A DNA stretch of 64,000 bases from Anaerolineales bacterium (GCA_041558875.1 JBFFEL010000004.1:6980-70979); one strand, 5' to 3'; positions 26,872 to 46,368 are shown, counted from the stretch's first letter. The notes: generated by a model not told the origin, from the sequence alone. Numbers and translations: made by a program.

Positions 26872-26881
26872 GAGGTGAAGT

Positions 26882-27742: not shown

Positions 27743-27931
27743 ATGATTACAGCAACCTGTCCGGAGTGTAAGCATTTGATTAATCTGATTTCATTGCCAG
27801 AAATCGGCAAACTATTTATGTGCGAGAGCTGCGACACAAAGCTCGAAGTAACCTGGCTGTTCCCAGTAATCTTGGACTATCAAGAGTATGAAAAACAGCT
27901 GGCCAGCGATGAGGACAAGAACCTGAAGTAA
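27743..27931 (+). CDS. LysW-like C4 zinc-ribbon small protein
   Basis: 62 aa with CPEC-x17-CESC, then KLEVTWLFPVILDY and the acidic tail QEYEKQLASDEDKNLK. Confidence 0.55.
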   Translation: MITATCPECKHLINLISLPEIGKLFMCESCDTKLEVTWLFPVILDYQEYEKQLASDEDKNLK

Positions 27932-29319: not shown

Positions 29320-29341
29320 TTTTAGATTGGAGGTGATTTTG

Positions 29342-29689
29342 ATGAAAACAAGATACAGATTTACCCTGATATTTATTGCATTTTTGCTTGCACTAGTAAT
29401 GTTCTTCGGAAACAGAAACGTTTCTGAGGCGCAGTCGGCCATATTTTATTTTCATTGGTCAGCTAATTGTGCAAAAGGTGAACCAGTGACGCTCAAACCA
29501 AAATACGACAAGGCATTTGATTGGACAGATCCATACACAGGAGCTGTAGAAAAAATTGTCCCTTATACGATTAGCTGTAAAACAGGTACTACTAGTGTTA
29601 GCAAATTGTGCAAAGGCTTTGTCTACACCAGGGCTTCAAGGACGGATCCCATGAATAATACACTCGTGTCTTGCTATGGAGTTCCGTAA
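29342..29689 (+). CDS. Small secreted Cys-containing protein, unknown function
   Basis: ATG at 29342 with GGAGGTG SD. The signal peptide is MKTRYRFTLIFIAFLLALVMFFG...SEAQS. The mature part has several Cys. Confidence 0.5.
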   Translation: MKTRYRFTLIFIAFLLALVMFFGNRNVSEAQSAIFYFHWSANCAKGEPVTLKPKYDKAFDWTDPYTGAVEKIVPYTISCKTGTTSVSKLCKGFVYTRASRTDPMNNTLVSCYGVP

Positions 29690-29787
29690 CCGATTTAATT
29701 CATAGGAGAAGAAAGAAATGAAAAAGAAACTGAAACAAGATATTTATTTTTCATTCTAGACCAAAAACACTATTACGGAGGTGAGAA

Positions 29788-30747
29788 ATGAAACATATTA
29801 AGAAAGCAACCCTAATTCTTGTGGCTCTAGCCATCTCCATAGGTTTGGTGTTAACCAATTCTCGACCAGTCTCTGCTGCTGTGGAAGAACCTCAAAAATG
29901 CACCCGGTGGCACACAGTTAATAAAGGCGAGTATCTGTCTATGATCGCTGAACAATACGAAACAAATTGGTATTCCCTGGTTGAGATCAATCAATTGACG
30001 AATCCAAGCCTCATTTACGTAGGCAACCGGTTGTGTATTTTCCACAGCGATTTCTCAACCAAGCCACTGGTAAATAATCCAATAAGTAGCAACAGTGCCA
30101 GAGTATTTGCTACCAGTGTTAAAGAAGATCAGACAGTGACCCTCCAGGGAAAATATTTAGTTGCGAATTCTCGTTACGACATTTATCTGGGTAAATATAA
30201 GACCGATCCAGCGATCAGAATTCCTGTTGGCTCAATCTCTACGGATAAAAATGGAGCCTTCCAAACGACAGTCACTATCCCTAAGAAGCTGTACGATGTA
30301 TTGAAGATTCGCGTCAGCCTAACCAATCAGCGCGGTGATACGAAATCAAACTGGTTCATCAATACTACCAGTTCAGGAAATGTCGGAGGTATTGGTTCTC
30401 CAGAGTTGAGCATAGCTGTCAAGTCTGTCAAGAAAGGCCAATGGGTAAAGATTGAAACGAATAACCTGCCAGCAAAAGTTTCCTTCAAGGTTTATATGAA
30501 GAGATCCGGAGCAAATGACAGAAAATGGGTTTTAGTTGGAACACTCCGTGATTCCAAGGGTGGCGAGGTTGTGGAATCCTTTGAAATTCCAGAATCAATA
30601 AAAGATCGATCAAAATTGGAGATTATGGCAGTAAACGATGCTCTAGATATGGATGCGGGAGCAAGGTTCGATAACATAACTACTAAGGCGCAAATAATCT
30701 CATCGATTAGACTCGATCAGGATACTGCAGTGATAGGTTTAAGGTGA
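29788..30747 (+). CDS. Secreted LysM-domain protein
   Basis: 319 aa with signal peptide and GGAGGTG SD. HTVNKGEYLSMIAEQYETNWYSLVEINQLTNPSLIYVGNRLCI is a LysM motif. The C-terminal region is beta-rich. Confidence 0.75.
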   Translation: MKHIKKATLILVALAISIGLVLTNSRPVSAAVEEPQKCTRWHTVNKGEYLSMIAEQYETNWYSLVEINQLTNPSLIYVGNRLCIFHSDFSTKPLVNNPISSNSARVFATSVKEDQTVTLQGKYLVANSRYDIYLGKYKTDPAIRIPVGSISTDKNGAFQTTVTIPKKLYDVLKIRVSLTNQRGDTKSNWFINTTSSGNVGGIGSPELSIAVKSVKKGQWVKIETNNLPAKVSFKVYMKRSGANDRKWVLVGTLRDSKGGEVVESFEIPESIKDRSKLEIMAVNDALDMDAGARFDNITTKAQIISSIRLDQDTAVIGLR

Positions 30748-30896
30748 GGCATCCCTCAGATGCTGACAGTTGATTTGCTTGAGCAAAAACACGTACTGGA
30801 AAAGAAATGTTGCCAGGAAAGTGATTGCTCAAGCACTATCTTTCAGCAATGCTTTAAAGATTTCACCACAAAACCCATTTTCCTAGGATATTCATC

Positions 30897-33287
30897 GTGC
30901 GCATCGTACTTGAACACATTTGGTCGGATTGGCGATTAAGTCTTGCTGTCACAATATTAATGGTAGCGGTTTTTGGTTTGTTGTGCGCTTGGTTCATGCC
31001 TCGAGGTCCAGTAACAACTTCACAAGCACTGGTTTCAATAGTGTCATCCTTATTCATTGGCATATTGGCTGGTTTTGTTATGGGAACCCGGTGGAGCATG
31101 TTGATCACGCCAGTGGCGTTTATATTTGTATTTGAACTCGCTCGAAATGGAATTAAAGGTCCCACGGTGGACAACATCATCCTCAGCTCCATGTATGGCG
31201 TCCTTGCATTTTCCACGGGTCGCTTATTTCATGGTGTGCTTGTCTTAGCACCGATGATATTAGGTGCCGTTTATGGGGCATGGATCGCATCCAGCGTTGG
31301 AAAAGGTCATATCGTGTCTGTGGGCACCTTCGGTTGGTCAATCACTGGTCTTAGCTCCTTGGCAATCATACTTGTTGTTTTTTTGGTTGCACAACCTGCG
31401 ACTACAAATCCAATAATCAATTCCGGTGGGGAGCCAATCTCTGGCAGTATTGCAGAATTGATCAGTGTCCCAATCGGTGGTCATGAACAGGTACTGATGA
31501 TTAGGGGAAGGAGTGTTGATAATCCGGTTCTTTTATATCTGGCTGGAGGACCTGGTGGTACAGACCTTGGTGCCATGCGTGCAGACGTCACTCTGGAACA
31601 GTATTTCATTGTTGTGACATGGGATCAACGCGGCACCGGTAAGTCTTATGCTGCTCTTGACCCGGTTGAAACGCTGACTTACGAACAAATGGTGTCCGAC
31701 ACGATCGAGGTGACAAATTACCTCCGTGACCGCTTCAATGTAAACAAGATTTACCTTGTAGGTAATTCTTGGGGCTCTATCCTCGGTATACTTGCCGTTC
31801 AACGTCAGCCTGAACTCTTCCACGCTTATGTTGGTACAGGTCAAATGGTCAGCCCAAGGGAAACCGATATCATGTTCTATGAAGATAACCTGAAGTGGGC
31901 TGAACAAACGCACAACGGAAACCTAGTTGATGAGCTGCAACAAATTGGTCTTCCTCCATACGAGAACCTCAAAAATTATGAAACAGCACTTTCCCACGAA
32001 CTCGCCTGGAACCCCTATTCCGGACTCGATACAAGCAAGGAAATGCTATTCAACTTGTTTGTACCCGAAAACTCACTCATGGATCGGATCAACGGGATGC
32101 GAGGTTTGCTCGATACTTTCTCCATCCTTTATCCACAACTACAGGAAATTGACTTTCGGAAGGATGTCCAAAGCATGGACATCCCCATTTATATTGTGAT
32201 TGGCAAGCACGAGGCTCGCGGCCGGGCTGTCTTAGCCAAAGAATGGTTCGAAATGCTTTCAGCTCCGTCAAAAGAGATGATCATTTTCGAACATTCAGGT
32301 CATCGTCCAATATTTGAGGAACCAGCGGAGTTCGCTGCTGTGATGACTCGTATCTTGGAGGACAATAATATCCAATTCTCGAATAATCCAACCCATCCGG
32401 TGTGTTTCGATACTTTTCTTGCTCCTATTGCATTTATGCCAGACAGTGAACGAATTTTGGTTCGCGCTGAATCAGGTGTTCAGATCTTTAATCTAGCAAC
32501 GATGGAGGAAGAATTGTTCCTTGAATCGCCAACAAAACTGAAAAGACCAACTGCGGTTCTGTCATTGAAAGGTGATATGTTAGCCTGGGTACTTGAAGAT
32601 AATTCCATCCAAGTAATCCGGTTATCAGATCAGAGCGTAATTTACACCACACACATCCATTCTGATCCAATCACAAAACTAAGATTTTCTCCGGATGGGT
32701 TGAAACTATACTCAGCCTCACATGATGGTTGGGTGAAGGAATTGAACATTGATGGACAAATAGTAAGCGAATTTCAGCCTTATGGTGGAGAGGTACTCGG
32801 ACTAGGTATTTCCGCAGATGGAGAAACCATTGCTACAATACCTTTCGATGGACCTGTAAAGTTGTGGGATACAGCAAACTATCAAATGCTGACAGATTTG
32901 GGGGGATCGGGTGGATATGATACCTCAGATGTGGCTTTTTCCAGCAACGGTCAATTTATCGCCGCAGATCTAGCAACCGGCCTGTCTGCCTGGGATATCA
33001 GTGATCATTCATTACTTTGGAATGGCATCAACAGCAAGGCATTCGCATTTTCGCCACAAGAAAACCTCTTGGCTTATTCAGATATTAGTAAGAATCATGA
33101 CATTATTCTTAGGTCTCTAGAAGACAAACAAATACTAAATACATTGATCGGCCATCAAGGTCCAGTTTGGGAGCTGATATTCTCACCTGATAGTCAATTG
33201 CTGGCATCCACGGATGGAAATGAATTGCGCATCTGGCGCGTGGATGGTGGCGAGCTCTTGTACATTGGAAAAAGCAGCTGTCCGTAA
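30897..33287 (+). CDS. Membrane-anchored alpha/beta hydrolase (proline iminopeptidase-like) fused to WD40 repeats
   Basis: 796 aa with about 5 N-terminal TM helices. The hydrolase core has LYLAGGPGG, nucleophile elbow GNSWGS and a late FEHSGH. The C-terminus has WD40-like repeats (e.g. GHQGPVWELIFSPDSQLLASTDGNELRIWRV). Confidence 0.75.
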   Translation: MRIVLEHIWSDWRLSLAVTILMVAVFGLLCAWFMPRGPVTTSQALVSIVSSLFIGILAGFVMGTRWSMLITPVAFIFVFELARNGIKGPTVDNIILSSMYGVLAFSTGRLFHGVLVLAPMILGAVYGAWIASSVGKGHIVSVGTFGWSITGLSSLAIILVVFLVAQPATTNPIINSGGEPISGSIAELISVPIGGHEQVLMIRGRSVDNPVLLYLAGGPGGTDLGAMRADVTLEQYFIVVTWDQRGTGKSYAALDPVETLTYEQMVSDTIEVTNYLRDRFNVNKIYLVGNSWGSILGILAVQRQPELFHAYVGTGQMVSPRETDIMFYEDNLKWAEQTHNGNLVDELQQIGLPPYENLKNYETALSHELAWNPYSGLDTSKEMLFNLFVPENSLMDRINGMRGLLDTFSILYPQLQEIDFRKDVQSMDIPIYIVIGKHEARGRAVLAKEWFEMLSAPSKEMIIFEHSGHRPIFEEPAEFAAVMTRILEDNNIQFSNNPTHPVCFDTFLAPIAFMPDSERILVRAESGVQIFNLATMEEELFLESPTKLKRPTAVLSLKGDMLAWVLEDNSIQVIRLSDQSVIYTTHIHSDPITKLRFSPDGLKLYSASHDGWVKELNIDGQIVSEFQPYGGEVLGLGISADGETIATIPFDGPVKLWDTANYQMLTDLGGSGGYDTSDVAFSSNGQFIAADLATGLSAWDISDHSLLWNGINSKAFAFSPQENLLAYSDISKNHDIILRSLEDKQILNTLIGHQGPVWELIFSPDSQLLASTDGNELRIWRVDGGELLYIGKSSCP

Positions 33288-33346
33288 ACAAACCCACGGG
33301 GAGATATTAATTGATTTGAGGAAACATTTTTAAAAGGAAACCTTTT

Positions 33347-34063
33347 ATGAAGAAAAAAATATTTCTAATTGGGTTGGTATCTACCCTCCTTTTAGCAGGC
33401 TGCAATACCAGGGAAGCATCAACCGACCAATCAGGTCAATCATCCATAAGTGTCAGCGGAACTGGCACAGCCAGCGCTGCCCCCGATGTGGTTGACATCC
33501 AAATGGGTGTCGATACTGCGGACACCGATCCAGTCGCGGCTGGCAACCAGAATTCTGAGAAGATGAATGCGATTATCACCGTACTCGGAGAAATGGGAAT
33601 TGCTGATATGGATATCCAGACCATCAATTACAGCATGTGGGTCGAAGATGTCTATGATCAGGATAATCAACCCACTGGTGCAAAACGTTACCGTGTTACC
33701 AACCAGTTGAATATCCGTCTTCGTGATTTATCCCAAATTGGTACATTGATCGAAGAAGCCACTAATGCCGGTGCAACTTATGTATCTGGGATAACCTTCG
33801 GTGTCGCGGATACAACTGAACTGGAACAGGCTGCTCTGGATGAGGCCATTGCTAATGCAAGTCAAAAAGCTGAATGGGTTGCCAACGAGATGGGTGTCAA
33901 TATTGGCTCACTAATAACCTTGATCGAAGGTGGGTTTAACACTCCCCCCATGCCTCTTTTCGCGGAAGAAAGAGGAGTAGGCGGTGGGGGTGAGGTGCCG
34001 ATCTCGCAAGGTCAGTTTAGCGTGTCAGCCCAGGTACAGGTGGTCTACAAATTGATCCCTTGA
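33347..34063 (+). CDS. SIMPL-domain (DUF541) lipoprotein
   Basis: 238 aa with lipobox LLAGC. ISVSGTGTASAAPDVVDIQMGV... and ...GQFSVSAQVQVVYKL are typical SIMPL ends. Confidence 0.8.
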   Translation: MKKKIFLIGLVSTLLLAGCNTREASTDQSGQSSISVSGTGTASAAPDVVDIQMGVDTADTDPVAAGNQNSEKMNAIITVLGEMGIADMDIQTINYSMWVEDVYDQDNQPTGAKRYRVTNQLNIRLRDLSQIGTLIEEATNAGATYVSGITFGVADTTELEQAALDEAIANASQKAEWVANEMGVNIGSLITLIEGGFNTPPMPLFAEERGVGGGGEVPISQGQFSVSAQVQVVYKLIP

Positions 34064-34180
34064 CCTAGTTGGCTAGGAGTCTCTCCAGAACTGACTAACA
34101 ACTTAAAAAAATCTCTCTCGAAATGTATTGCACTAAAAGCAGCTGATCAATTCAAGCTCACGATCGATGAGGTGATCACC

Positions 34181-34651
34181 ATGATTAAGAATTATTTTAT
34201 GATTATATTGGCTTTTGTGCTACTCAGTGCCTGTTACCCAGGTAGGAATGACTCCGAAAAAGCAAATCAGGCAATTACTGACTTCTTCAGCGAATTGTCA
34301 AACGGTAATTATGGAAAAGCGGTGACTCTATATGGCGGAAGTTATGGGATCTTGACAAATTTTAATCCGGATTTGGACGCAAATGATCACGTAGCATTGT
34401 TGAAGAATGGCTGCCAAATCAACGGTTTGCAATGTTTGACTATCCGCACGATAACATTCAACGAGCTTTCAGTATCTGGGGAATATATTTTCACTGTGGA
34501 ATTCAACGATCCTGCTGGAAATCTATTCGTTCTCGAGGCCTGCTGCGGCGAAAATCCAACTACGGTGCCTCAATTCCAGTTTGAGTACCGGGTTGTACAA
34601 GGCAGGGATGGGAAAATGCGGGTTTTGGATTTACCAGTTTACACGCCGTGA
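34181..34651 (+). CDS. Lipoprotein, unknown function
   Basis: ATG at 34181 after GAGGTGA. The signal and lipobox are FVLLSAC. No recognisable family. Confidence 0.45.
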   Translation: MIKNYFMIILAFVLLSACYPGRNDSEKANQAITDFFSELSNGNYGKAVTLYGGSYGILTNFNPDLDANDHVALLKNGCQINGLQCLTIRTITFNELSVSGEYIFTVEFNDPAGNLFVLEACCGENPTTVPQFQFEYRVVQGRDGKMRVLDLPVYTP

Positions 34652-34867: not shown

Positions 34868-35392
34868 TTGGAATCAAAGGTACCTTATTTCGAAAAAATG
34901 TTAAAACAAAAATCGATCGCTCGTAAGCAATTTTCCCCTCAAAAGTTAACCTATATCACCGCCAAAGGTCTCGGAAAACTTGTAGATGAATTGGATTACT
35001 TGCGCACCTCAAAACGAATGGAAATGTCCCAGCATTTGCATGACACAATGGGCGAAGCTGAAGATAGCGAATATTTGATTGCCCTCCAGGAACAAGCCTT
35101 TATCGAGGGGCGCATCCATGAATTAGAAGGGCTTTTGGCAAATTATCGGATCATCGAGCCAGGCCATAATAGTGGCAATGTTCAACTAGGCAGTACTGTT
35201 GTGATCAGAGAAAATGGCAAGGACACGGAAACCTATACAATTGTAGGTACTGCAGAAGCAAATCCCAGGGAAGGCTTAATTTCGGATGAGTCACCCCTTG
35301 GAACGGCCCTGCTTGACAGCAAAGTTGGCGATGATATAGAAATCAATGTGCCAGGGGGGGTATTAAAATTCCGGATTGTGGCGGTTCAATAA
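34868..35392 (+). CDS. GreA-like transcript-cleavage-factor homolog, paralog 1 (N-terminal extension, start uncertain)
   Basis: 174 aa. It aligns with GreA throughout: LTYITAKGLGKLVDELDYLRT..., ...SEYLIALQEQAFIEGRIHELEGLL, and C-terminal LISDESPLGTALLDSKVGDDIEINVPGG. Confidence 0.8.
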   Translation: MESKVPYFEKMLKQKSIARKQFSPQKLTYITAKGLGKLVDELDYLRTSKRMEMSQHLHDTMGEAEDSEYLIALQEQAFIEGRIHELEGLLANYRIIEPGHNSGNVQLGSTVVIRENGKDTETYTIVGTAEANPREGLISDESPLGTALLDSKVGDDIEINVPGGVLKFRIVAVQ

Positions 35393-35455
35393 GTTTTTGA
35401 AACTGTATCTAAAACGCCTTAAGGCATATTCAGCAGATAGTAATCCGCGGAAAAA

Positions 35456-35647
35456 ATGAAATTTGCACACTGCCCTGCATGCAATATGATCATTCAACTC
35501 CCGCAAAAAATAAAAGTGCGTGAACTGATCAACTGCCCTCATTGTAATTCCATGCTTGAGTTGGCAAGCCAATATCCCCCTACTTTAGATTGGGCTGAGG
35601 ATCCTCTTGTGCATCCTTCACGCAGGGGCATGAAACGATTATTTTGA
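35456..35647 (+). CDS. LysW-like C4 zinc-ribbon small protein (basic tail)
   Basis: 63 aa with CPAC-x17-CPHC, then MLELASQYPPTLDWAEDP. The C-terminus ...SRRGMKRLF is basic. Confidence 0.5.
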   Translation: MKFAHCPACNMIIQLPQKIKVRELINCPHCNSMLELASQYPPTLDWAEDPLVHPSRRGMKRLF

Positions 35648-35673
35648 AACCATAAAAATAAAGGTAATCTCTA

Positions 35674-36918
35674 ATGGAAATTTACCAATCAACCAAAGCC
35701 AGAATTCTTCCACCCCCTCTGGAGAGAAAACAAGATTCCTGGAGAATCGCAATAATTGCCAATCTGATTGATGGATTTGAACGCAATGCCGACGATCCTC
35801 TAGATGCTGGTGCAGAATTCGATCGCTTGCAAACAATTGAAGCTATCGCAGATGCTCTAGAAAGAGACGGGCACAATGTGTTTTTTTTGGAGGCAAACAG
35901 CACTCTTCCTGAAGCCTTGATGGACGTACGTCCAGATATTTGCTTCAACATCGCTGAAGGGATTCGCGGTGATGGTCGCGAAGCCCAGGTACCAGCTTTA
36001 TGCGAATTGTTGGGTATCCCGTATACCGCCTCCCAGGTGGTTGCTAACGCAATTTCCTTGAACAAGACAATGACCAAGCGCATCTGGCAGCAACAGGGAC
36101 TACCAACGGCACCATATTACGAATTCAACTCGCTGGAAGAAGTTGCTCACGCTGATTTTCGCTTTCCTTTGTTTGCTAAACCATCCCGCGAGGGCACCGG
36201 TATGGGTATCAACACCAGTTCAATAATAAGTAATTATGATCAGCTAATTGAACGCGTTGATTGGCTGCTGAGCAATTACCGGCAGCCAGTGTTGGTGGAG
36301 GAATTCCTACCCGGGCGCGAGTTCACCGTTGGTTTTATCGGAAATCGCGGTCATCCGACCTTCAGGAGGCGTCCAGAATTGTATGATAACGATGGTTATC
36401 ACTGGTTTCCCGTCTTAGAGATCGATACTCTGTCCAGCGTGAGTCCTACCATATACGGACACGATGCCAAGGAGTTAGATATCGGTTCGGAAGGCGCTCC
36501 TAGTTATCTCTGCCCAGCAGATATACCTGAATCCTTACGCGCCAGGCTCATTGACCTGACTCGTCGGGCTGCTGAAGCTTTAGAAGTTCGGGATGTATCC
36601 CGGGTCGATTTCCGGGTGGGGGCTGATGGTGAACCCTATCTGCTGGAAATTAACACTCTCCCGGGACTGAACCCGATCTTGAGTGATTTATGCATCATGG
36701 CTGCCGCTGAAGGGATGTCACATCAAACACTGATTACAGAAATCCTATACCTGGCTGCAGAACGATATCACCTTGGAAATATTCCGGTACGTAGCAACTT
36801 TCAACCAGTAAATTCTCGAAATCATTTTGAAGTGGTTCAACAAAGGATCTCAATAAATAATTCAGACTTACCTTTACATCATGAAAGCGCCAGTAAATAC
36901 GAGCTACCAGATTTTTAA
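35674..36918 (+). CDS. ATP-grasp ligase, D-Ala-D-Ala-ligase-like family
   Basis: 414 aa with GREAQVPALCELLGIPYTAS, LNKTMTKRIW, FPLFAKPSREGTGMGI, VLVEEFLPGREFTVG and RVDFRV...PYLLEINTLPGL. Confidence 0.8.
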   Translation: MEIYQSTKARILPPPLERKQDSWRIAIIANLIDGFERNADDPLDAGAEFDRLQTIEAIADALERDGHNVFFLEANSTLPEALMDVRPDICFNIAEGIRGDGREAQVPALCELLGIPYTASQVVANAISLNKTMTKRIWQQQGLPTAPYYEFNSLEEVAHADFRFPLFAKPSREGTGMGINTSSIISNYDQLIERVDWLLSNYRQPVLVEEFLPGREFTVGFIGNRGHPTFRRRPELYDNDGYHWFPVLEIDTLSSVSPTIYGHDAKELDIGSEGAPSYLCPADIPESLRARLIDLTRRAAEALEVRDVSRVDFRVGADGEPYLLEINTLPGLNPILSDLCIMAAAEGMSHQTLITEILYLAAERYHLGNIPVRSNFQPVNSRNHFEVVQQRISINNSDLPLHHESASKYELPDF

Positions 36919-36950
36919 CCTATACAATTCGAGAATAGGAGAACATATAG

Positions 36951-37184
36951 ATGAAATCCCAGATAAAAACAACCCATAAGGATTCGATTGTTAAGTGCCT
37001 GTTATGTAACAGTATGATAAATCTTGGTTTTAATTACAAAGTCGGTAAATTTATCACCTGCAAGAACTGTGAGATGGTATATGAAATCATTAATATCGAT
37101 CCGGTAATGATTGACTGGCCATATCACGATGATGATTACATCGATAATGATGATCTTTACGATTACGATTACGATTATGATTGA
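36951..37184 (+). CDS. LysW-like C4 zinc-ribbon small protein with Asp/Tyr-rich tail
   Basis: 77 aa with AGGAGA SD. It has CLLC-x17-CKNC, then YEIINIDPVMIDW, then the tail PYHDDDYIDNDDLYDYDYDYD. Confidence 0.6.
   Translation: MKSQIKTTHKDSIVKCLLCNSMINLGFNYKVGKFITCKNCEMVYEIINIDPVMIDWPYHDDDYIDNDDLYDYDYDYD
37161..37181 (+). repeat. Hexanucleotide microsatellite (GATTAC/GATTAT x3.5) encoding the DYDYDYD C-terminus
   Basis: The sequence is gattac gattac gattat gat, immediately before the TGA at 37182-37184. Confidence 0.8.
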
Positions 37185-37397: not shown

Positions 37398-38203
37398 ATG
37401 TTAGATGAATATTTTCATGCAATTCCCTGGCTAAATCAGATCCTTCGAATTTCCCCCTATGTCACCCTCGCCTGGGTAAGATCCGCTCCCTCTAATCGGA
37501 TTATTAATCGATTCAATAGTCATTCGGAATTAACCATTGGTGGAGAACAGCTCCTTTCGGAACGCATACGGACAATCAGGGTTTTGATTGCTGGTTCTAA
37601 AAGCCCGATTGCGTTTGTAACGGCAGCTATATTAATCCTGAGCATGTTTTTGGATTCAGTTACATTGATCTGGATGGTTGGATCGTTCAGCGCAGTCTTT
37701 GGTTTAGGAGCCCGCCCATTAATCAGAGATTACCTCCATGGCATTGGTTATATCTTTGAGAACGAATTCACAGCAGGAGAAAAGATTCAGCTTCCAGGCC
37801 TGTATCCCGTCGAAGGAATGGTAGAAGCCAATTGTCTTTGAGCGACAACGTTCAGGGCACCTTCAGAGAGATGTATACTGTGCCAAAAGGGGAAATTCGT
37901 ACAGTCCGAAACTTCAGTCGGGGTAATTACTCGTTAGCGAATATAACACTAAAATTCTCGGCTAACGATTTGAGCCGGGCCTTGCCTCTCTTGGAAGATT
38001 TCGTACGCGAGGCTGTGAATTTGTTGCCTAATCTCCTTAAACCTTGGCAGGTTATCAGCGAATCTGGGATCATTGGGCAGGAAACAGAGCTAACCTTGGA
38101 TGCAAAAGCGAAATTTGGCAAGGCTTGTGAAATGCGTCCAAATTTGATGGCATTGATCCAAGAACAATTATTGGAGAGGAACATTTCATTAGCCAATTTA
38201 TAG
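37398..38203 (+). pseudogene. Small MscS-like mechanosensitive channel gene split by a frameshift near 37832-37841
   Basis: ORF 37398..37841 ends ...FTAGEKIQLPGLYPVEGMVEANCL*, which is pore helix plus the start of the beta domain. The overlapping ORF 37832..38203, in another frame, continues LSLSDNVQGTFREMYTVPKGEIRTVRNFSRG... with the MscS beta/C-terminal domain. A sequencing error has not been excluded. Confidence 0.5.
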
Positions 38204-39183
38204 TGAGTTGTATGATCCGTTCAATTGTGTTTACCGAAGCGGGTGAGACGCAACCCATAATTGTGGAAAAAATCCCGGAGATATTGAAAAATAAGATAGA
38301 TTTCTTCTGGGTAGACGTTGTTGCTGAACCAGATGAAAACTGTAAAAACCTGTTTCAAGGTGTTTTTAATTTCCACTCACTAGCAATTGATGATGCTCTC
38401 CAAGAAACGCATGTTCCAAAAGTTGATGGTTGGAGCACATACCTCTATATGGTATTGCTCACTGCAAGAAAAGCATCTCAAGATTCCTTTGAGATTCTCA
38501 CACCAGAGTTGGATGTATTCTTAGGCTCAAATTATTTAGTGACATACCACAAAGAGGCAATTGCCAGTGTAGATGCGATTTGGGCTCTTTGCCTGCGAGA
38601 TCAAAGATACATGTCAAAAGGACCAGGATTTATTCTCTATCAAATTTCAGATGAGATTGTTAGCAACACAATGTCAGTAATTGAGGATGCAGAAAATCTA
38701 TTAGATCAGATCGAAGATGTGATCTTTACCAATCCACAACCAGCGATCTTAGAACAAATCTTTTCAGTCAAACGTACATTGCTAGGATTACGAAGTTTCC
38801 TGCTTCTCCAAAGGGAGATTTTTAATAAGCTGGCACGTGGTGATTTTGAACTAATCCCAGACCATGACAGAGTTTACTTCCGAGATGCATACGACCATAT
38901 GGTCCGGGTGCAAGAAATCAATGAAAGTTTACGTGATCTTATCAATAGTGTATTAGAAATTTATCTTTCTGTGGTAAACAATCGGATGAATGAGATCATG
39001 AAGTTGCTAACCATTATTGCTACGATTTTTATCCCACTTTCTTTCTTCACGGGAATTTATGGAATGAATTTTACCTTTATGCCGGAGCTGCAATGGCGAT
39101 GGGGTTATTTCTTTTTTCTAGGTTTTATTGGGCTGATTCTCATTGGTATGTTGATCTTTTTTAGGCGAAAACAATGGATATGA
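38203..39183 (+). CDS. corA: CorA-family magnesium/cobalt transporter
   Basis: 326 aa with two C-terminal TM helices and a YGMNF (GMN) motif. An alternative ATG lies at 38212. Confidence 0.85.
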   Translation: MSCMIRSIVFTEAGETQPIIVEKIPEILKNKIDFFWVDVVAEPDENCKNLFQGVFNFHSLAIDDALQETHVPKVDGWSTYLYMVLLTARKASQDSFEILTPELDVFLGSNYLVTYHKEAIASVDAIWALCLRDQRYMSKGPGFILYQISDEIVSNTMSVIEDAENLLDQIEDVIFTNPQPAILEQIFSVKRTLLGLRSFLLLQREIFNKLARGDFELIPDHDRVYFRDAYDHMVRVQEINESLRDLINSVLEIYLSVVNNRMNEIMKLLTIIATIFIPLSFFTGIYGMNFTFMPELQWRWGYFFFLGFIGLILIGMLIFFRRKQWI

Positions 39184-39256
39184 TGTTTGATGATATCTGT
39201 CCACCCATATAAAAAAAACGAGGCAATAATCATCAATCCCTAATTTAGGCGCATAG

Positions 39257-40429
39257 ATGGTAGAAATTTTTGAAAAGAATACAAATATAAGTTAGCCAGA
39301 GATCTTTTGTTTTACATTGTCGTACTTTTAATAGTTTCTGGATTGACATGTACCTACTACCTCCTAATGCGGTCCTTGGTAATTGCAGCGCTTTTGGCAT
39401 ACCTACTTTATCCAGGAGTAACTTGGATATCTGATCATACACATCTAAACAAAGATATGTAGTTCCTGTGGTCTATATCGTATTCGTGGTTGTTTTGGTT
39501 GTTATCATTATCTAACTTTCACCAATAATTTTTCAGCAGGCAAAGATACTCAGCTTTAGGCTGCAAACTATTCCTAATCAAATAGGCAAATTCGAGACAA
39601 ATGTTGAGATTCTGTTTGGTTTTGAGTTACCCATATTAGCTTTTTGGGATGACATTCAATTTGGCGCATACCAACTGCTAAAACCCGAGAGGGTCTTTCA
39701 AATAATTAGGATTACAACCACGAACATAGTTTGGTTGGTCGTTATATTCGCCACAAGCTTCTATTTACTTAGAGATTGGGAACATTTGTGTGTGGGATTG
39801 GTTTATAAGATTAGCTCCGGCGGAATATGAACCTGATATCCTTCACCTTTACCAGGAGATTAAATCTGTATGGCAGATATTTCTTCGAGGGCAACTCCTG
39901 ATTATGTTCCTGGTAGGTTTACTTTCAGGGTTGGTTGCAGCTGTGATTGGACTTCCAGGCGCTTCCATATTAGGGATTCTTGCGGGAACCCTGGCACTAA
40001 TCCCAACACATGGGCCGGCGATAGCAACTATGATTAACGCTATCGTTGCCTGAACACAGGTATCTACCCACCTATCTTGATTTTTCCAATGGAGTGATAG
40101 TTTTTTTGTCAATCTCTATTTTTCAGTTGGTTCAGATAGTTGAAGGAGTTTGGCTTTCAACACAAATCATGGAGAGAAAGCTGCAATTACATCCAGGTCT
40201 TGTACTGGTTGCTATTATTAATACTTTGATAAGTGTAAGTGCGATGATTGCTTTAATGATCACACCACTGATTGGTTCCTTAGAGATAGTTCTTCGATAT
40301 GTTATTAGAAGAAAACGGGCTGGATTAGCACCTTGGTCAAAGGAAGAATCACTTCAATGGGTTGATGATGATACCTTACCTGATATTCCAGTTATTACCG
40401 AAATGTTTTTTTACACGAAAACGACTTAG
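39257..40429 (+). pseudogene. Decayed AI-2E (PerM/YhhT) family transporter gene with several frameshifts and stops
   Basis: The pieces are in different frames. They read MVEIFEKNTNIS*, LARDLLFYIVVLL...AALLAYLLYPGVTW...*, VPVVYIVFVVVLVVIII*, LSPIIFQQAK...FYLLRDWEHL, WDWFIRLAPAEYEP...LIPTHGPAIATMINAIVA*, and ...IFQLVQIVEGVWLSTQIMERKLQLHPGLVLVAI.... Together they trace one AI-2E-like protein. Confidence 0.55.
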
Positions 40430-40686
40430 TATGCGAGAAGAGTACAGAAACTGACCCTAACTAGGTATATCAACGAATGCAGTATTATTTGAATCTACGG
40501 AATTCGTAAGATAGGAGAAACTTAATATCGATAGTAAAAACTTGAATAAACTCGTGCTCGCAAACACAGGCTGCAGTTACAATCCTATCATTCAATGTAA
40601 AATCATCAAACCACTTCACAAAGATCAAAAATTCTAAATATCAATAATATAACTATTTTTTTATCCCAGGAAATTTTTTAGTTGGG

Positions 40687-40998
40687 TTATCTTTCATCAT
40701 GATCAATAAAATGATTTTTCTTGTCACGACCTAATAATTTTGTTCCATCCCAAAAAAATGCAAAAGCGATAAAAATCAAAATAACAAATGTTCGCATTGT
40801 TTGTGATATTTGGTAATATGGTCTAATAAGATTTTGTTCAGCATACAATAAGGTGAAACCAAGTAAGAATATTCCAAAAAAATATATCAATATACTTTGC
40901 CATTTGCCTTGTTTTAAATTTCCCATTCCAGCAAATAGAATGAAAAATAGATTTGTAAGAAAAGAATCTTTTTTCAACTGAATCCCTCTTAGTTTCAA
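40687..40998 (-). CDS. Small membrane protein (about 3 TM), unknown function
   Basis: 103 aa. Its start overlaps the stop of the RimK-like gene by 4 nt, which suggests co-translation. Confidence 0.45.
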   Translation of the reverse strand: MKLRGIQLKKDSFLTNLFFILFAGMGNLKQGKWQSILIYFFGIFLLGFTLLYAEQNLIRPYYQISQTMRTFVILIFIAFAFFWDGTKLLGRDKKNHFIDHDER

Positions 40999-41924
40999 AA
41001 GGAGTGCAAATACATTTTTTCTTTTGAAGGAATCCCTTCTAACCGAACTTGTACATACTGATAAATTTCCATCGGCACGTTAATTCCGGTTGCAAATTCA
41101 AACCCCTCAAATCCTGGGGCGCAATTGATTTCACAAACTTTATAATTATCGCCATCAAACAGCAGGTCCACACCGGCAATATCCAATCCTAACGCCCTGG
41201 CCGATTCGACAGCCAACCACTCAACAGCTGGAACTAACTCGAAATTCGATACCTTCCCCCCTCTTGAGTAATTTGCTTTGTACATACCTTCTCTTGCGAC
41301 TCTCAACATGCCGCCAATCGCCCTCCCTCCCACAACAATCACGCGAATGTCTTTACCTCGACTTGATGAAATGAATTCTTGAATAATCACATTTGCAGTT
41401 GATCCTTTGGATATCTCAATCAGCTCACCCAAATCCTCCATTTGTCCTCGATTCTCGCATAGGAAAATCCCTCTTCCACGAGAACCGGACACAAGTTTCA
41501 CAATCACGGGATAAGTAAATTCCGCATCCACTTTCTCTACATTAAAAGGAAATTTTGCCAGCATTGTTTTTGGAATAGGAATATTATTCCCAGCCAGACA
41601 TTGAATAGTTGCCAGTTTATCTCTGCCAACTTCAATACTCCGGCTGGGATTCAAGGTGAATATTCCCCCTTGCTCAAGATACCGTAATGCAGATAATGAG
41701 AAGTAGGTTGCGCCTGATCCTAGTCTAGGAATCAGGCAGTCAACATTATTACTGGTCTGTCCTTCATACGGCCTGTCATGGCTTGTATCGCTTGGTACGA
41801 TTAAATCAAAATCCTCTATTGCAAGAAAACTGAAATCAATCCCTGCATCAACTGCTTCTTCTCGAAATCGACGATTTTCGTAACTTTCAATATTTTTGTC
41901 TTTATCTAAGAGCCAAATTTTCAT
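40995..41924 (-). CDS. RimK-family ATP-grasp alpha-L-glutamate ligase-like protein
   Basis: 309 aa, collinear by eye with E. coli RimK. Shared segments are MKIWLL, IPRLGSGATYFSLSALRYLE, RDKLATIQCL, PVIVKLVSGSRGRGIF, IIQEFI...GKDIRVIVVG, ANYSRGG and AGVDLL...VCEINCAPGFEG. Confidence 0.85.
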   Translation of the reverse strand: MKIWLLDKDKNIESYENRRFREEAVDAGIDFSFLAIEDFDLIVPSDTSHDRPYEGQTSNNVDCLIPRLGSGATYFSLSALRYLEQGGIFTLNPSRSIEVGRDKLATIQCLAGNNIPIPKTMLAKFPFNVEKVDAEFTYPVIVKLVSGSRGRGIFLCENRGQMEDLGELIEISKGSTANVIIQEFISSSRGKDIRVIVVGGRAIGGMLRVAREGMYKANYSRGGKVSNFELVPAVEWLAVESARALGLDIAGVDLLFDGDNYKVCEINCAPGFEGFEFATGINVPMEIYQYVQVRLEGIPSKEKMYLHSF

Positions 41925-41932
41925 TTCCGGGT

Positions 41933-42400
41933 CTAAGAAACATTCAGAATGTGTACTGGATAAACTCCCCCTGGTGCCCTGATCAGCACATCATCACCAA
42001 CTTTGTGACCGATCAGGGCACTCCCTAAAGGAGATGCAAAAGAAATCAAACCCCGAACAGGCGCGGCTTCTACCGGCCCAACAATTGTATAGCTCACCGG
42101 TTCCTCACCATTTTCAGAAATCATAACCTTTGAACCGATTTCGATCACTCCACCATTTTCTTGATTCTCAATGATGATCGGGTTTGAAAGTAAGATCTCC
42201 AAATCTTGAATGCGGCCCTCAATGAATGCCTGTTGTTCTTTTGCCATGGCAAATTCGGGATCCGTATCACCATCGTTCTCATTACCACCATTTGATTCCC
42301 TCAGCAGCGCGGCAATTTCCTGGCGTTTCACATTCCGTAAGTATTCAAGCTCACCAAGTAATTTTTCATAACCGGATGAAGTTAAATATGTTGGTGGCAT
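41933..42400 (-). CDS. GreA-like transcript-cleavage-factor homolog, paralog 2
   Basis: 155 aa with LTSSGYEKLLGELEYLRNVKRQEIAALL, ...PEFAMAKEQQAFIEGRIQDLEILLSN and C-terminal LISFASPLGSALIGHKVGDDVLIRAPGG. The gene ends 8 nt upstream of the RimK-like gene. Confidence 0.8.
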   Translation of the reverse strand: MPPTYLTSSGYEKLLGELEYLRNVKRQEIAALLRESNGGNENDGDTDPEFAMAKEQQAFIEGRIQDLEILLSNPIIIENQENGGVIEIGSKVMISENGEEPVSYTIVGPVEAAPVRGLISFASPLGSALIGHKVGDDVLIRAPGGVYPVHILNVS

Positions 42401-42484: not shown

Positions 42485-42892
42485 TTAGTTTAAGTATTCA
42501 TCCAGATGATCTTCAAAGGTATCTTCGTCACCAAAATAGTAATCAAAGCCCCCATCGTATGGCCAGTCTAGCTCGAGAGGGATCAAGGAGACAATTTCCA
42601 ATTCCGCATCACAACCAGAACACAACACTTTACTACCAACCTTCATTTGCGATGATCCAATCTGAACCATATCCTTACATAACGGGCACCTACCATTACT
42701 CGCTTTTTTTACTCGTTCTCTGCCATTTGAATCAAAATGTTCATCGTAATATATCCAATCCAATTCAATCGGATTGGTGTTGACAACTTCTAGAAGTGCT
42801 TCACAAGATGGACAGATAGCTCGTTCAAGAAACTTAACTTTTTTTCCTAGTTCTATACTCTCTTCGCATATCGGACATTGCGCTCTTATCAT
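42485..42892 (-). CDS. Tandem double LysW-like zinc-ribbon protein
   Basis: 135 aa. Module 1 is CPIC-x17-CPSC EALLEVVNTNPIELDWIYYDEH. Module 2 is CPLC-x18-CSGC DAELEIVSLIPLELDWPYDGGFDYYFGDEDTFEDHLDEYLN. Confidence 0.6.
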   Translation of the reverse strand: MIRAQCPICEESIELGKKVKFLERAICPSCEALLEVVNTNPIELDWIYYDEHFDSNGRERVKKASNGRCPLCKDMVQIGSSQMKVGSKVLCSGCDAELEIVSLIPLELDWPYDGGFDYYFGDEDTFEDHLDEYLN

Positions 42893-42950: not shown

Positions 42951-43178
42951 TTATATGCCTTTCCAGTCTTTATCCCAGAATTCGAATTCATCGAACGCAT
43001 ATCCACTTTCGTCTGGGACATATATTAGATCCAACACAATAGGGTCAAGGTTGATAATCTCTACCTGTTCATCACAGATTGAACAAAGTATATATTGGCC
43101 AATCTTTGGGTTTTCCCCAATAGATATTTTCTCTCCACAGGAAGGACATCGCGACATTCGTTTCTTAATAGATTTCAT
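42951..43178 (-). CDS. LysW-like C4 zinc-ribbon small protein
   Basis: 75 aa with CPSC-x17-CSIC DEQVEIINLDPIVLDLIYVPDESGYAFDEFEFWDKDWKGI. Confidence 0.6.
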   Translation of the reverse strand: MKSIKKRMSRCPSCGEKISIGENPKIGQYILCSICDEQVEIINLDPIVLDLIYVPDESGYAFDEFEFWDKDWKGI

Positions 43179-43210: not shown

Positions 43211-43402
43211 CTACTCGATTAAAAGCTTAATGGATTGATCAGGATTAACCGAATTATCCTCAACCAAATCTAGAGTGAGTGGATATAACCAAGTTATTTC
43301 GAAATTGTTGTGGCAATGGGGGCAGGAGATTCGACTATTAATGTATGGTGCTTCGTCTGTGATTTCAAACTCTTTCAGGCAAGAGGGGCAGTTTGTTACC
43401 AT
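43211..43402 (-). CDS. LysW-like C4 zinc-ribbon small protein ending in Glu
   Basis: 63 aa with CPSC-x17-CPHC HNNFEITWLYPLTLDLVEDNSVNPDQSIKLLIE. It is the only member with a C-terminal Glu, as in LysW and ribosomal protein S6. Confidence 0.6.
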   Translation of the reverse strand: MVTNCPSCLKEFEITDEAPYINSRISCPHCHNNFEITWLYPLTLDLVEDNSVNPDQSIKLLIE

Positions 43403-43551: not shown

Positions 43552-43582
43552 AAAATAAAAAAAGCCTCTCCGTCAGGAGAGG
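43552..43582 (-). terminator. Rho-independent terminator after the regulator gene 43606..44301
   Basis: The minus-strand RNA is CCUCUCC-UGAC-GGAGAGG followed by CUUUUUUUAUUUUG, 23 nt after the stop. Confidence 0.7.
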
Positions 43583-43605: not shown

Positions 43606-44301
43606 TTATTCGCTACGATTGAAATAATACCCAATTCCTGATTCCGTGAGAATGTATCTTGGGTTTCTTGGTTCAGGTTCAACTTTCGATCGCAATCGCT
43701 GAACAAGTCCACGAACCAGATCCCGATTACCTTCACCAGAATAACCCCATACATGCTCTACGATCTGCTCCGTAGGCAAGATCTGTCCAACATTGGTCAT
43801 CAATGTGTATAGCAAGCGAAATTCTAGTTGAGTCAAATGTTTTTCCGGATGATTCCCCACTTTCACCGTACGCATTGATGGATCTAACACAACATCATGT
43901 TGGGATAACGTGGGCAAACTGAAAAATGGAATACCAGCGCTTCTTCTTAATAAAGATTTTATTTGTGCATGAAGGAAGCGAATTCCATATGGCCGTTGGA
44001 TTACCAGGTCCGCTCCAGCCTCCAACAATTCAACCTGTATTCCTTCATTTATAGGATCACTAATTATGCAGATTGGAATGACTGTGTGCAATCGAAAGTC
44101 TTCAATATACTTTATTGCTTTGGATATATCTTCTGGAAGTGTGATAAGTACAAAATCGGCTGGTTTTTCAGGCCAAGCATCAATTGCTTGCTCGAGGTTG
44201 TGAACAGTCCTTACATAAAATCCTGCTCTTTGCAGGAGAAGACTCAGGACAGAGGCTTCTTCGATATGAGGGGAGAATAACAATGCTTGCATATTGATCA
44301 T
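43606..44301 (-). CDS. OmpR-family winged-helix regulator with degenerate (pseudo-)receiver domain, paralog 2
   Basis: 231 aa, collinear with 26882..27562. Shared segments are SAG[VI]PFFSLPTL[TS]Q, LTQLEFRLLYTLMT, VEHVWGYSGEGNR.LVRGLVQR.RSK and GIGYYF. The receiver is degenerate: FSPHIEE, ADFVLITLP (Thr at the phospho-Asp position) and QRPYG. Confidence 0.8.
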   Translation of the reverse strand: MINMQALLFSPHIEEASVLSLLLQRAGFYVRTVHNLEQAIDAWPEKPADFVLITLPEDISKAIKYIEDFRLHTVIPICIISDPINEGIQVELLEAGADLVIQRPYGIRFLHAQIKSLLRRSAGIPFFSLPTLSQHDVVLDPSMRTVKVGNHPEKHLTQLEFRLLYTLMTNVGQILPTEQIVEHVWGYSGEGNRDLVRGLVQRLRSKVEPEPRNPRYILTESGIGYYFNRSE

Positions 44302-45354: not shown

Positions 45355-46368
45355 TCAAATCATTTGCTTAAAATGGACTTCAGATTTTCCTTTCAAATGG
45401 ATCAAAGCCGTTTTCTCCAATTCTACTGCCAGTTGTTCTGGATCATCCTCCTTTCCTAATCTAACATGCCCGGCCGCCATATTTCCATGACCACCGGCTG
45501 TACCTTTATGACCAATGATTTTGGAAATCAACATGCCAGCACCGATTTTTTTGTTCCGAGATCGCATGGAAAGGATCAATTCATCGACAAAAACCCCCAT
45601 ACAGAGTACCCACTGGATACCCCTCAACCTCATGAAGAAATCAGCTATCTCGGCGCAAAGGTCTGGATAAGGAAGATTGCCTAAATAAGCAATAACGACA
45701 TCATCATCGAAAATCCGACCAGCATGAATCGCATTGTCGATACTCTGGAAATAAGTTATAGGCACTTGAGCCTGCTCGATTTGTACTAAAGCATGGACAT
45801 CTATTAATGGTTGCAGGTAGAAGTATGCCTCCACATCAGCTGGACTGGCATGACGGCTGAGACCCATAGTATCCGTTTTGATGCCGAAGAAAAGGGCTGT
45901 AGCTAGCTGAGGAGTTGGATTGATCCCGGCTTCTAGCAAATACTCAGTCAGGATAGTGGAAGTGGCTCCTAATTCAGGACGAATATCCACAAAATCACCT
46001 GATTTAGCAGCACTTTGCGAGATGTGATGATCTATTACGATATCAGCCATCCGGTCAGCAGGTAGAGAGTTGTTTCCAGTGCTAGGCTGAGTATCGACTA
46101 AGGCGATCTTAGATTCTGTATGCCAGTCGGAGGGTTGAATAAGACGGAGCGGTTTATCCAAATACTGCACCAGCGCCTTGTTCTCAGCACGCCCGATATG
46201 GCCTTTGTAAATAATTTTTGCATCTACATGAAAGACTATATTGAGGAGATTTTTCAATCCAACCGCCGAGCCAATTGCATCTGGATCAGGATCGTTGTGG
46301 GGAATGATCAGGATGTTAGTTTGGTCAGCCAATACCTTGGCAAGTGCATCAAGATGCTTATCAGACAT
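45355..46368 (-). CDS. DHH/DHHA1 family phosphoesterase (NrnA-like), paralog 2
   Basis: 337 aa with IIPHNDPDPDAIGSA, VIDHHIS and GGHGNMAAG. It is collinear with 25858..26871. Confidence 0.85.
   Translation of the reverse strand: MSDKHLDALAKVLADQTNILIIPHNDPDPDAIGSAVGLKNLLNIVFHVDAKIIYKGHIGRAENKALVQYLDKPLRLIQPSDWHTESKIALVDTQPSTGNNSLPADRMADIVIDHHISQSAAKSGDFVDIRPELGATSTILTEYLLEAGINPTPQLATALFFGIKTDTMGLSRHASPADVEAYFYLQPLIDVHALVQIEQAQVPITYFQSIDNAIHAGRIFDDDVVIAYLGNLPYPDLCAEIADFFMRLRGIQWVLCMGVFVDELILSMRSRNKKIGAGMLISKIIGHKGTAGGHGNMAAGHVRLGKEDDPEQLAVELEKTALIHLKGKSEVHFKQMI

Follow-up and report, generated by a model that had tools for sequence, protein, structure and literature searches.

What brings a transcript-cleavage-factor-like protein, two small zinc ribbons and an ATP-grasp ligase together in one gene cluster of an Anaerolineales bacterium? 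The cluster lies on the plus strand of a 64,000-nucleotide (nt) stretch of the assembly GCA_041558875.1 (JBFFEL010000004.1:6980-70979), the whole of which is referred to below as the window. It consists of four genes, which we call module 1 (aa, amino acids; ORF, open reading frame):

34868..35392, plus strand: Gre-like factor 1, a GreA/GreB paralogue of 174 aa as counted from the ORF, with Pfam domains GreA_GreB_N and GreA_GreB
35456..35647, plus strand: LysW-like zinc ribbon A, 63 aa, with the motif LDWAEDP and the basic tail ...SRRGMKRLF
35674..36918, plus strand: Ddl-fold ATP-grasp ligase, 414 aa, with Pfam domain Dala_Dala_lig_C
36951..37184, plus strand: LysW-like zinc ribbon B, 77 aa, with the motif IDWPY and the Asp/Tyr tail ...HDDDYIDNDDLYDYDYDYD

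The best explanation for this module is that it represents a diverged pair of the carrier protein LysW and an ATP-grasp ligase, and the combination of LysW-type ribbons, a Ddl-like ligase, Gre-like factors and regulators probably signals that protein-tail ligation has been put to a new use, in salt or ion stress. ORF calling returned exactly the four co-directional plus-strand ORFs, with intergenic gaps of 63, 26 and 32 nt, that had been given in a first-pass annotation of this DNA, and the translated ORFs bore out its remark that the two ribbons have opposite tails, basic in ribbon A (...KRLF) and acidic in ribbon B (...DYDYDYD). The true start of Gre-like factor 1 is more likely the ATG at 34898, which gives 164 aa, as annotated in CP070785.1, a 96%-identical genome. 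Ribbon B is preceded by a strong ribosome-binding site (TAGGAGAA). Orthologous small ribbon ORFs from different genomes showed nonsynonymous divergence (dN) of 0.23-0.47 and saturated synonymous divergence (dS), indicating that the ribbons are protein-coding genes under purifying selection. A pattern scan of the window found 6 ribbon genes with 7 ribbon domains in total, all located between 27.7 and 43.4 kb. Gene neighbourhoods were compared across 80 genome loci and 13 further contigs, which carry labels of the type L001 in what follows.

The zinc ribbons and their relation to LysW

The first-pass annotation had assigned the small ribbons of this module, and those of a second module further downstream, to one family. 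This was confirmed, and the family could be identified as that of LysW. Ribbon A matched Pfam family PF21344 (Zn_ribbon_LysW) with 34.9 bits against a cutoff of 27; the match of ribbon B was weak (20.4 bits), and this ribbon belongs to the family whose profile matches the LysW chains in the Protein Data Bank (PDB). That profile was built from an alignment of 41 ribbon domains with the consensus CPxC...PKxGxxxxCxxC...LEVxxLxPxxLDW, in which four Cys and one Pro are invariant and one Asp is nearly so. Its best PDB matches were LysW of Thermococcus (5k2m_E, E = 6e-13) and of Thermus (3wwl_A, 1e-12), after which the matches dropped to generic zinc fingers. An AlphaFold2 (AF2) model of ribbon A reached a predicted local distance difference test score (pLDDT) above 90 for residues 1-45, with a disordered tail, and when this model was compared with the PDB using Foldseek, the best six matches were all LysW, with template modelling (TM) scores of 0.75-0.92 on the target and root-mean-square deviations of 0.8-1.7 Å, separated by a clear score gap from the next match. 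By PF21344, profile and Foldseek alike, the ribbons thus have the four-Cys zinc-ribbon fold of LysW. Sequence comparison and the modelled structure together indicate that they descend from this carrier protein, and that they have kept the globular ribbon and exchanged the EDWGE end for long tails.

The loss of this end is evident in module 1, since neither ribbon A nor ribbon B carries the C-terminal EDWGE of LysW with its terminal Glu. The closest resemblance is a loose D-W-A-E after the ribbon in subtype A, and the TIGR01206 lysW model gave only 16.9 and 16.0 bits for the two module 1 ribbons against a cutoff of 53.2. The tails are variable in length (15-40 residues), and across 222 of them Asp made up 19%, Glu 12%, Tyr 8.5% and Trp 3.7% of residues, with a median net charge of -5 and Tyr or Asp as the commonest final residue.

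Motif, tail and gene position divide the ribbons into subtypes. Subtype A, with LDWAEDP and a basic tail ending in Phe or Tyr, is located 5' of the ligase, and subtype B, with IDWP[YF] and an Asp/Tyr tail, 3' of it; orthologues of ribbon B come after the ligase in L002, L082, L083 and L093. Subtype C is a double ribbon that is always found directly upstream of a second Gre-like factor and is kept in L001, L082, L083, L090 and L091. Subtype D has a conserved aromatic tail motif, DEYEYWDRYW in many homologues, which looks like a specific binding motif and not like low-complexity sequence; the pattern [DE][YF][ED][YF]W[DE][RK]YW is common to ribbon D of the window and the homologues P0249-P0282. 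Subtype E (TWL[YF]P..LD[LYF]) always follows directly after a regulator gene, an arrangement found twice in the window and twice in L082, and also in L010, L011, L083, L084, L085, L090, L092 and L093. An exhaustive search with the ribbon profile yielded 2,700 clusters (50% identity) at E<=0.001 and 624 at E<=1e-10, where the weaker matches may include canonical LysW and inspection covered the strongest. Many of the best matches were tandem doubles or triples, and the best 150 representatives contained tandem ribbons only, with no fusion to ATP-grasp, Gre or regulator domains.

The Ddl-fold ligase and its conserved neighbours

The 414-aa enzyme had been described as resembling D-Ala-D-Ala ligase (Ddl), which is correct with regard to its fold, yet the protein falls below every curated Ddl cutoff. 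It contains Pfam Dala_Dala_lig_C (101 bits) and scored 171.9 bits against a cutoff of 243 with NF002378 (Ddl subfamily), and 146.7 against 245.65 with TIGR01205; all Ddl equivalog models in NCBIfam place it far under their cutoffs, and stand-alone relatives from Anaerolinea and Longilinea likewise stay under the Ddl thresholds. The best PDB sequence match was DdlB (8evy, E = 1.8e-30), and Foldseek aligned the AF2 model with DdlB and DdlA at TM 0.81-0.85 and 25-29% identity, the top 50 matches all being Ddl. Residues K266, R310, D312, E325 and N327 align with K215, R255, D257, E270 and N272 of DdlB and are invariant in the family, so that, as far as the alignment goes, the ligase looks catalytically competent. 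The position of DdlB Tyr216 is Glu in the window ligase, and E, S, A, G or T across the family, and that of Ser150 is Thr. The acidic replacement of Tyr216 was considered as a sign of a cationic substrate and dropped because the column varies across the family. An N-terminal Ddl domain was not detected by Pfam or aligned by HMMER. Other family features are an insertion of ~22 residues before the omega loop, which is family-specific, and the motifs DAGAEFD, in the N-terminal domain, and FNIAEG.

Homologues of the ligase are numerous, with at least 7,973 at E<=1e-10 and more than 550 genome loci. Among the best 120 matches, the named ones were all metagenome-assembled genomes (MAGs) of Chloroflexota/Anaerolineales except one MAG of candidate division Zixibacteria, and the family includes the cultured genera Anaerolinea, Longilinea, Levilinea and Thermanaerothrix. 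NCBI names these homologues 'Ddl family protein' or 'hypothetical', and the Joint Genome Institute (JGI) pipelines 'D-alanine-D-alanine ligase'. Judged by these searches, the enzyme belongs to a large family that is distinct from Ddl and that, in the sample covered, is confined almost wholly to Anaerolineae/Chloroflexota. No mur or dcw genes were found at the loci examined.

The ribbons are a conserved companion of one clade of this family. A LysW-like ribbon was found within 350 nt of the ligase gene at 17 of the 24 loci of the window clade, compared to 0 of 58 loci of the stand-alone clade (Fisher p = 2e-12, a value that ignores phylogeny). In 16 of the 17 cases ribbon and ligase are on the same strand, typically 18-30 nt apart, and the adjacency held across genomes whose ligases are 57-82% identical and whose ribbons are only about 50% identical. 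The first-pass annotation had argued for functional coupling over chance adjacency, and with these numbers and this conservation the proximity of ribbon and ligase is indeed not due to chance. Its related observation, the recurrence of Gre-like genes in the same islands, also extends beyond the window, as such a gene stands beside a ribbon or the ligase not only here but also in eight further loci (L001, L006, L010, L011, L082, L083, L090 and L093).

The other recurrent neighbour is a radical S-adenosylmethionine (SAM) lysine 2,3-aminomutase, which is the next gene after the ligase in 10 of the 24 clade loci and in some overlaps the ligase stop codon. It passes the AblA equivalog threshold (540.6 bits against 525.4), and is located directly 3' of the ligase in L003, L004/L084, L005, L007-L009, L012, L013 and L092. 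The most compact operons have the order regulator-ribbon-ligase-AblA (L007-L009, L012) or DHH-regulator-ribbon-ligase-AblA (L092). CorA and MscS genes were each found within 8 kb of the ligase at 6 of the 24 clade loci and at 0 of 60 stand-alone loci (p = 3e-4). The homology to LysW, the link to AblA, the regulator and ribbon pairs and the ion and osmotic content of the islands had been absent from the first-pass annotation.

The second module and the surrounding island

The second module, which had been predicted on the minus strand, was found there with its RimK-type enzyme, second Gre-like factor, one double ribbon and two single ribbons. The two modules belong to an island with two inverted arms, each of which has one of the modules at its inner end; the remaining features of the island are as follows:

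40995..41924, minus strand: RimK-family ATP-grasp ligase, 309 aa, module 2 (TIGR00768 rimK_fam)
41933..42400, minus strand: Gre-like factor 2, 155 aa (Pfam GreA_GreB_N and GreA_GreB)
42485..42892, minus strand: LysW-like double ribbon C, 135 aa (TIGR01206 lysW, 40.3 bits in two stretches)
42951..43178, minus strand: LysW-like ribbon D, 75 aa (TIGR01206, 30.3 bits), with the aromatic tail motif DEFEFWDKDW
43211..43402, minus strand: LysW-like ribbon E, 63 aa (TWLYPLTLDLVED), the regulator-following subtype, assigned by the ribbon family alignment
43606..44301, minus strand: OmpR-family regulator with a pseudo-receiver domain (best PDB match KdpE 4kny)
45355..46368, minus strand: DHH/DHHA1 phosphoesterase, forming the right arm's outer end (weak NCBIfam DHH-family matches)
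25858-26871, 26882-27562 and 27743-27931, plus strand: left-arm unit of DHH/DHHA1 phosphoesterase, pseudo-receiver regulator and E-type ribbon (Pfam DHH, DHHA1, Trans_reg_C, Response_reg)
37398..40998: central cargo of an MscS-like pair, CorA (38203-39183), a fragmented AI-2E transporter and TM103 (Pfam CorA 226 bits, AI-2E fragments)
40687..40998, minus strand: TM103, a predicted small membrane protein of 103 aa that overlaps the RimK stop codon

The 309-aa enzyme is a bona fide member of the RimK family (TIGR00768, 226.8 bits against a cutoff of 143.4). It scored 153 bits against 275.6 with LysX_arch, and 169 against 331 with the equivalog model for the ribosomal protein S6 glutamate ligase, so that it belongs to the family but is not the S6 enzyme. 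Only three close homologues (82-85% identity) were found, and a metagenome scan with the protein gave no relative. The next homologues (at most 67% identity) include named archaeal, actinobacterial and spirochaete proteins, and the one such distant context inspected (L087/L088) was unrelated. In L086, which holds one of the three close homologues, RimK again follows a Gre-like gene, after an 8-nt gap. The right arm has the conserved order regulator, ribbon E, ribbon D, ribbon C, Gre-like factor 2, RimK (not always present) and TM103. RimK is reduced to remnants of 97 aa in CP070785.1, 125 aa in L091 and 73 aa in L090, and is absent in L082 and L083. The first-pass annotation had stressed that two ATP-grasp types occur beside the same ribbons and Gre-like factor; both are present, but the narrow distribution of RimK and its decay in sister islands indicate that this recruitment, although real, was lineage-restricted and is apparently dispensable. 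Including it, the ribbon family occurs in three ATP-grasp settings, namely with the Ddl-fold ligase, with the RimK type (window and L086) and in the compact L092 operon. The RimK remnants are located at about 9954-10061 in L001/L081, 11257-11634 in L091 and 9407-9628 in L090. CP070785.1 also lacks the entire MscS-CorA-AI-2E stretch between the modules, and in L082 and L090, where RimK is lost, Gre-like factor 2 is still followed by TM103.

Both Gre-like proteins carry the coiled-coil and C-terminal Pfam domains GreA_GreB_N and GreA_GreB (51.8 and 83.6 bits, respectively, in Gre-like factor 1), and the NCBIfam equivalog scores stayed under their cutoffs (130.3 bits against 145 with the GreA model for Gre-like factor 1; 122.9 against 139). 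The best PDB matches of Gre-like factor 1 were E. coli GreA (1grj, 1.6e-20) and Thermus Gfh1. The acidic tip of canonical GreA/GreB (D41, E44) is not found in these factors: the tip loop of Gre-like factor 1 is one residue shorter (GE-AEDSEY versus GDLKENAEY), and the tip of Gre-like factor 2, GGNENDGDTDPEF, keeps D41 but has Thr in place of E44 and a 2-residue insertion compared to E. coli GreA.

The island, at about 25.8-46.4 kb, stands out by its low GC content (0.38-0.44 versus about 0.50 outside). Each arm opens with a DHH/DHHA1 phosphoesterase, an OmpR-type regulator and an E-type ribbon (25858-27931 on the plus strand, 46368-43211 on the minus strand), and the DHH-regulator pair recurs in L082, L090, L092 and L093. 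The regulator at 43606-44301 matched KdpE (4kny) best, at 8e-30. Where KdpE reads ...IILDLGLPD, with an Asp that we take to be the phospho-acceptor, this regulator reads ...FVLITLPED, which puts a Thr opposite the Asp, and the conserved Lys is replaced by Arg (KP to RP); the regulator is therefore a pseudo-receiver protein. The Pfam Response_reg match is faint in its orthologues. The left-arm regulator (26882-27562) is above the Response_reg cutoff and was assumed to be a pseudo-receiver from its similarity to the 43606-44301 copy. The OmpR-type regulators of the island are accordingly predicted to be incapable of phosphorylation. The left-arm ribbon (62 aa, 25.6 bits with TIGR01206), found by the pattern scan, directly follows its regulator and precedes a 449-aa protein with an NBR1-Ig domain. 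Related islands contain MscS, CorA, AI-2E, a 650-aa permease of AA_permease_2/K_trans type, CitMHS with TrkA-C, CBS proteins and Usp.

Several minor features of the island were recorded. The AI-2E gene is split into at least three ORFs (39307-40429, plus strand) and the MscS-like region into two (37398-38203, plus strand), so that these are either pseudogenes or frameshift errors. The left arm from 27970 to 34651 (plus strand), between the regulator unit and Gre-like factor 1, encodes envelope-type proteins (NBR1-Ig, LysM, a 796-aa α/β-hydrolase-WD40 protein, SIMPL and a putative lipoprotein). A terminator-like hairpin with a T-run is located at 43565-43582 (minus strand), between the regulator stop codon and the E-type ribbon gene; a promoter and terminator scan showed no enrichment compared to shuffled sequences. 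A search against Rfam revealed neither riboswitches nor other RNA families over the whole window. Membership in a defence system was considered and rejected, as the PADLOC anti-phage models matched none of the eight proteins of the two modules.

Proposed tail amidation and competing explanations

The results establish homology and fold, the conserved order of the genes and what the island contains; that the ribbons are covalently modified, at which site and with which amine, is inference. LysX amidates LysW, and RimK acts likewise on ribosomal protein S6. By analogy, the ligases of the two modules may link an amine, probably lysine or β-lysine, through an amide bond to carboxylates in the ribbon tails, a proposal that we put forward tentatively, as the leading candidate among several and still short of probable. 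The ATP-grasp enzyme, the Ddl-fold ligase in module 1 and the RimK/LysX-type ligase in module 2, would activate a tail carboxylate with ATP as the acyl-phosphate and then join the amine to it. This amine would most likely be lysine or β-lysine, because AblA directly follows the same ligase in related operons, and the disordered tails with their high content of carboxylates (D 19%, E 12%) support the proposal. The modification state of the tails would feed into the island regulators, and since these have ribbons of their own and share an ion-related island with Gre-like factors, the charge state of the tails is a plausible regulatory input. In a bolder version, which is decidedly unlikely, the island would be a signalling device with ligases in place of kinases and amino-acid marks (lysine, β-lysine) on the acidic ribbon tails. 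The extent of marking would then track the ionic and amino-acid state of the cell, and the charge-switched ribbons would steer the OmpR-type regulators without the Asp, and the Gre-like factors on RNA polymerase, with the expression of channels, transporters and osmolyte synthesis as output.

Several observations weigh against tail amidation. At the 58 stand-alone loci, which are from other Anaerolineae and whose ligases are 50-57% identical to that of the window and carry the same motifs (DAGAEFD, FNIAEG and the insertion before the omega loop), the surroundings are variable and no LysW-like ribbon was present within 8 kb at any of them. L034 and L048 have the order AblA, ligase, second Ddl-like ligase, with no ribbon. 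The aminomutase is absent from the window. The window ligase itself is very acidic (net charge -24), and a column-wise charge comparison gave no clear gain of a ribbon-specific basic surface in the ribbon-associated clade. In the 222 tails no conserved attachment site was found, as the C-termini vary (Tyr, Asp, Leu, Arg and others), and the subtype of the ligase-adjacent ribbon differs between genomes. Finally, in L089 an acid-tailed ribbon (79 aa, 3701-3940) is located directly upstream of a 1102-aa HAMP-GAF-PAS histidine kinase, on a contig with no ATP-grasp gene.

Some of these observations fit better with a small-molecule ligase, an explanation that is possible and ranks near-equal to tail amidation. 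The enzyme would make a conjugate of free lysine or β-lysine, for example Nε-aminoacyl-β-lysine, as a zwitterionic compatible solute, standing in for the acetyltransferase AblB, and the ribbons, left unmodified, would act non-covalently on the enzyme or on the pseudo-receiver regulators, as adaptors or in a regulatory role. It accounts for the operon shared by ligase and AblA, for the two tandem Ddl-like ligases beside AblA in L034 and L048, for the stand-alone occurrence of the family in most Anaerolineae, and for islands that hold MscS, CorA, a K_trans-like permease, CitMHS/TrkA-C and Usp; homology to Ddl would also imply that a small amino acid is activated. It leaves unexplained why ribbons flank the ligase so tightly and why they also pair with a RimK/LysX-type enzyme, and the lack of an aminomutase in the window, a difficulty for tail amidation too, extends to the surroundings of the ligase in the nearest relatives. 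The literature covered, in titles, abstracts and term counts, contained no paper tying an ATP-grasp ligase to ablA or to a β-lysine solute. The alternative that the ribbons and Gre-like factors form a transcription module, binding RNA polymerase or the regulators and tuning island transcription, is unlikely on balance. The acidic and aromatic tails would then be interaction motifs or nucleic-acid mimics, the Gre-like proteins secondary-channel factors with altered tips, and the adjacency to ATP-grasp genes mere co-regulation. This would suit the position of the E-type ribbon, always after a pseudo-receiver OmpR regulator, and of double ribbon C, which precedes Gre-like factor 2 even in islands without RimK, as well as the ribbon upstream of the HAMP-GAF-PAS kinase, the conserved aromatic motif of the D-type tail and the non-canonical Gre tips, which resemble those of Gfh1-type paralogues. 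However, the compact regulator-ribbon-ligase-AblA operons have no Gre-like gene, ribbons A and B stay with the ligase and not with the regulator after rearrangements, and no link to RNA polymerase was seen in the results obtained.

Two further explanations fare worse. Small ORFs with hypervariable C-terminal regions beside ATP-grasp ligases are reminiscent of peptides that are made by ribosomes and then modified post-translationally (RiPPs), in which case the ribbons would be precursor peptides with tails cross-linked or tailored by the ATP-grasp enzymes in the manner of graspetides or pheganomycin. This is improbable, since the fold and sequence neighbours of the ligase are all Ddl and none are graspetide maturases, a paired Thr/Ser/Lys-Asp/Glu core is missing from the tails, neither a protease nor an exporter is present, what is conserved in the small proteins is the folded LysW ribbon and nothing like a leader, and the surroundings consist of ion homeostasis genes and regulators. 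The least credible explanation is that the 414-aa enzyme is the organism's cell-wall D-Ala-D-Ala ligase and its neighbours are irrelevant. The Ddl fold, the catalytic residues and the JGI name agree with it, but the scores under every curated cutoff (171.9 versus 243; 146.7 versus 245.65), the NCBI names that go no further than 'family protein' or 'hypothetical', the undetected N-terminal Ddl domain, the variable Tyr216 position and the family-specific insertion do not, nor do operon partners that are AblA and LysW-like ribbons in place of mur or dcw genes.

Among known systems the module most resembles the amino-group carrier system LysW/LysX (ArgW/ArgX) of Thermus, Sulfolobus and Thermococcus, which has counterparts in the amino-group carrier protein (AmCP) systems of Streptomyces. 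To our knowledge, LysW is known only as a carrier in lysine and arginine biosynthesis and for a few metabolites of Streptomyces, without exception it has a LysX-type ligase as its partner and ends in the fixed EDWGE, and being the partner or substrate of an ATP-grasp ligase is the only known role of its fold. Common to both are a four-Cys zinc ribbon of the LysW fold beside an ATP-grasp ligase, an acidic C-terminal extension and, in module 2, a RimK/LysX-type enzyme. The ribbons described here, in contrast, have no EDWGE, and their long, variable tails are rich in Asp, Glu, Tyr and Trp or are basic; where that system has a single ribbon gene, the window holds six, with seven domains; the partner in module 1 is a Ddl-fold ligase; and the setting is one of regulators and ion transport, not amino-acid biosynthesis. 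None of lysZ, lysY, lysJ and lysK was found among the Pfam-annotated neighbours in seven related islands, or among the scanned window proteins at about 25.8-46.4 kb, where some ORFs remained unscanned. Three defining features of the LysW/LysX system are therefore missing here, namely ribbons that end in EDWGE, lysZYJK and, as far as module 1 is concerned, a ligase of LysX type. In the literature searched on LysW with GreA and ATP-grasp, on LysW-like carriers and on aminomutase with ATP-grasp, this arrangement was not described. With these ribbons the LysW fold gains a sizeable, diversified branch that had gone unrecognised, encoded in ion-homeostasis islands of Anaerolineae, members of a phylum that has received little study. 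If the ribbon tails are substrates of the ligases, a new protein-modification or carrier chemistry would operate in this major and poorly studied phylum, and if they are not, the ligase-AblA pair would point to an unrecognised β-lysine-derived solute.

The individual components can likewise be placed beside characterised relatives. The ligase shares with DdlB, DdlA and VanA its fold (TM about 0.8, 25-29% identity) and the ATP/Mg and catalytic residues, and differs from them in its sub-threshold scores, the DAGAEFD motif, the insertion, the variable Tyr216 position and the lack of a cell-wall context. In methanogens, AblA and AblB, the latter a GNAT acetyltransferase, form the pathway for the compatible solute Nε-acetyl-β-lysine. 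The related loci resemble this pathway in having an AblA equivalog in the operon and salt- or ion-related surroundings, but the partner is an ATP-grasp ligase, with or without a LysW-like ribbon, and not a GNAT AblB, of which none was seen beside the AblA equivalog in these loci; the window has no ablA. The two-domain Gre architecture and the non-canonical coiled-coil tip of the Gre-like factors recall Gfh1 and Rnk, Thermus Gfh1 being among the best PDB matches, and we know of no characterised Gre paralogue that is linked to LysW-like ribbons and ATP-grasp genes. RimK, in S6 polyglutamylation, and tubulin tyrosine ligase are ATP-grasp enzymes that extend acidic C-terminal protein tails. They differ in acting on another substrate family, the RimK of the window being lineage-restricted and tail extension by it a proposal. 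As in α-tubulin, many of the ribbon tails end in acidic residues and a Tyr.

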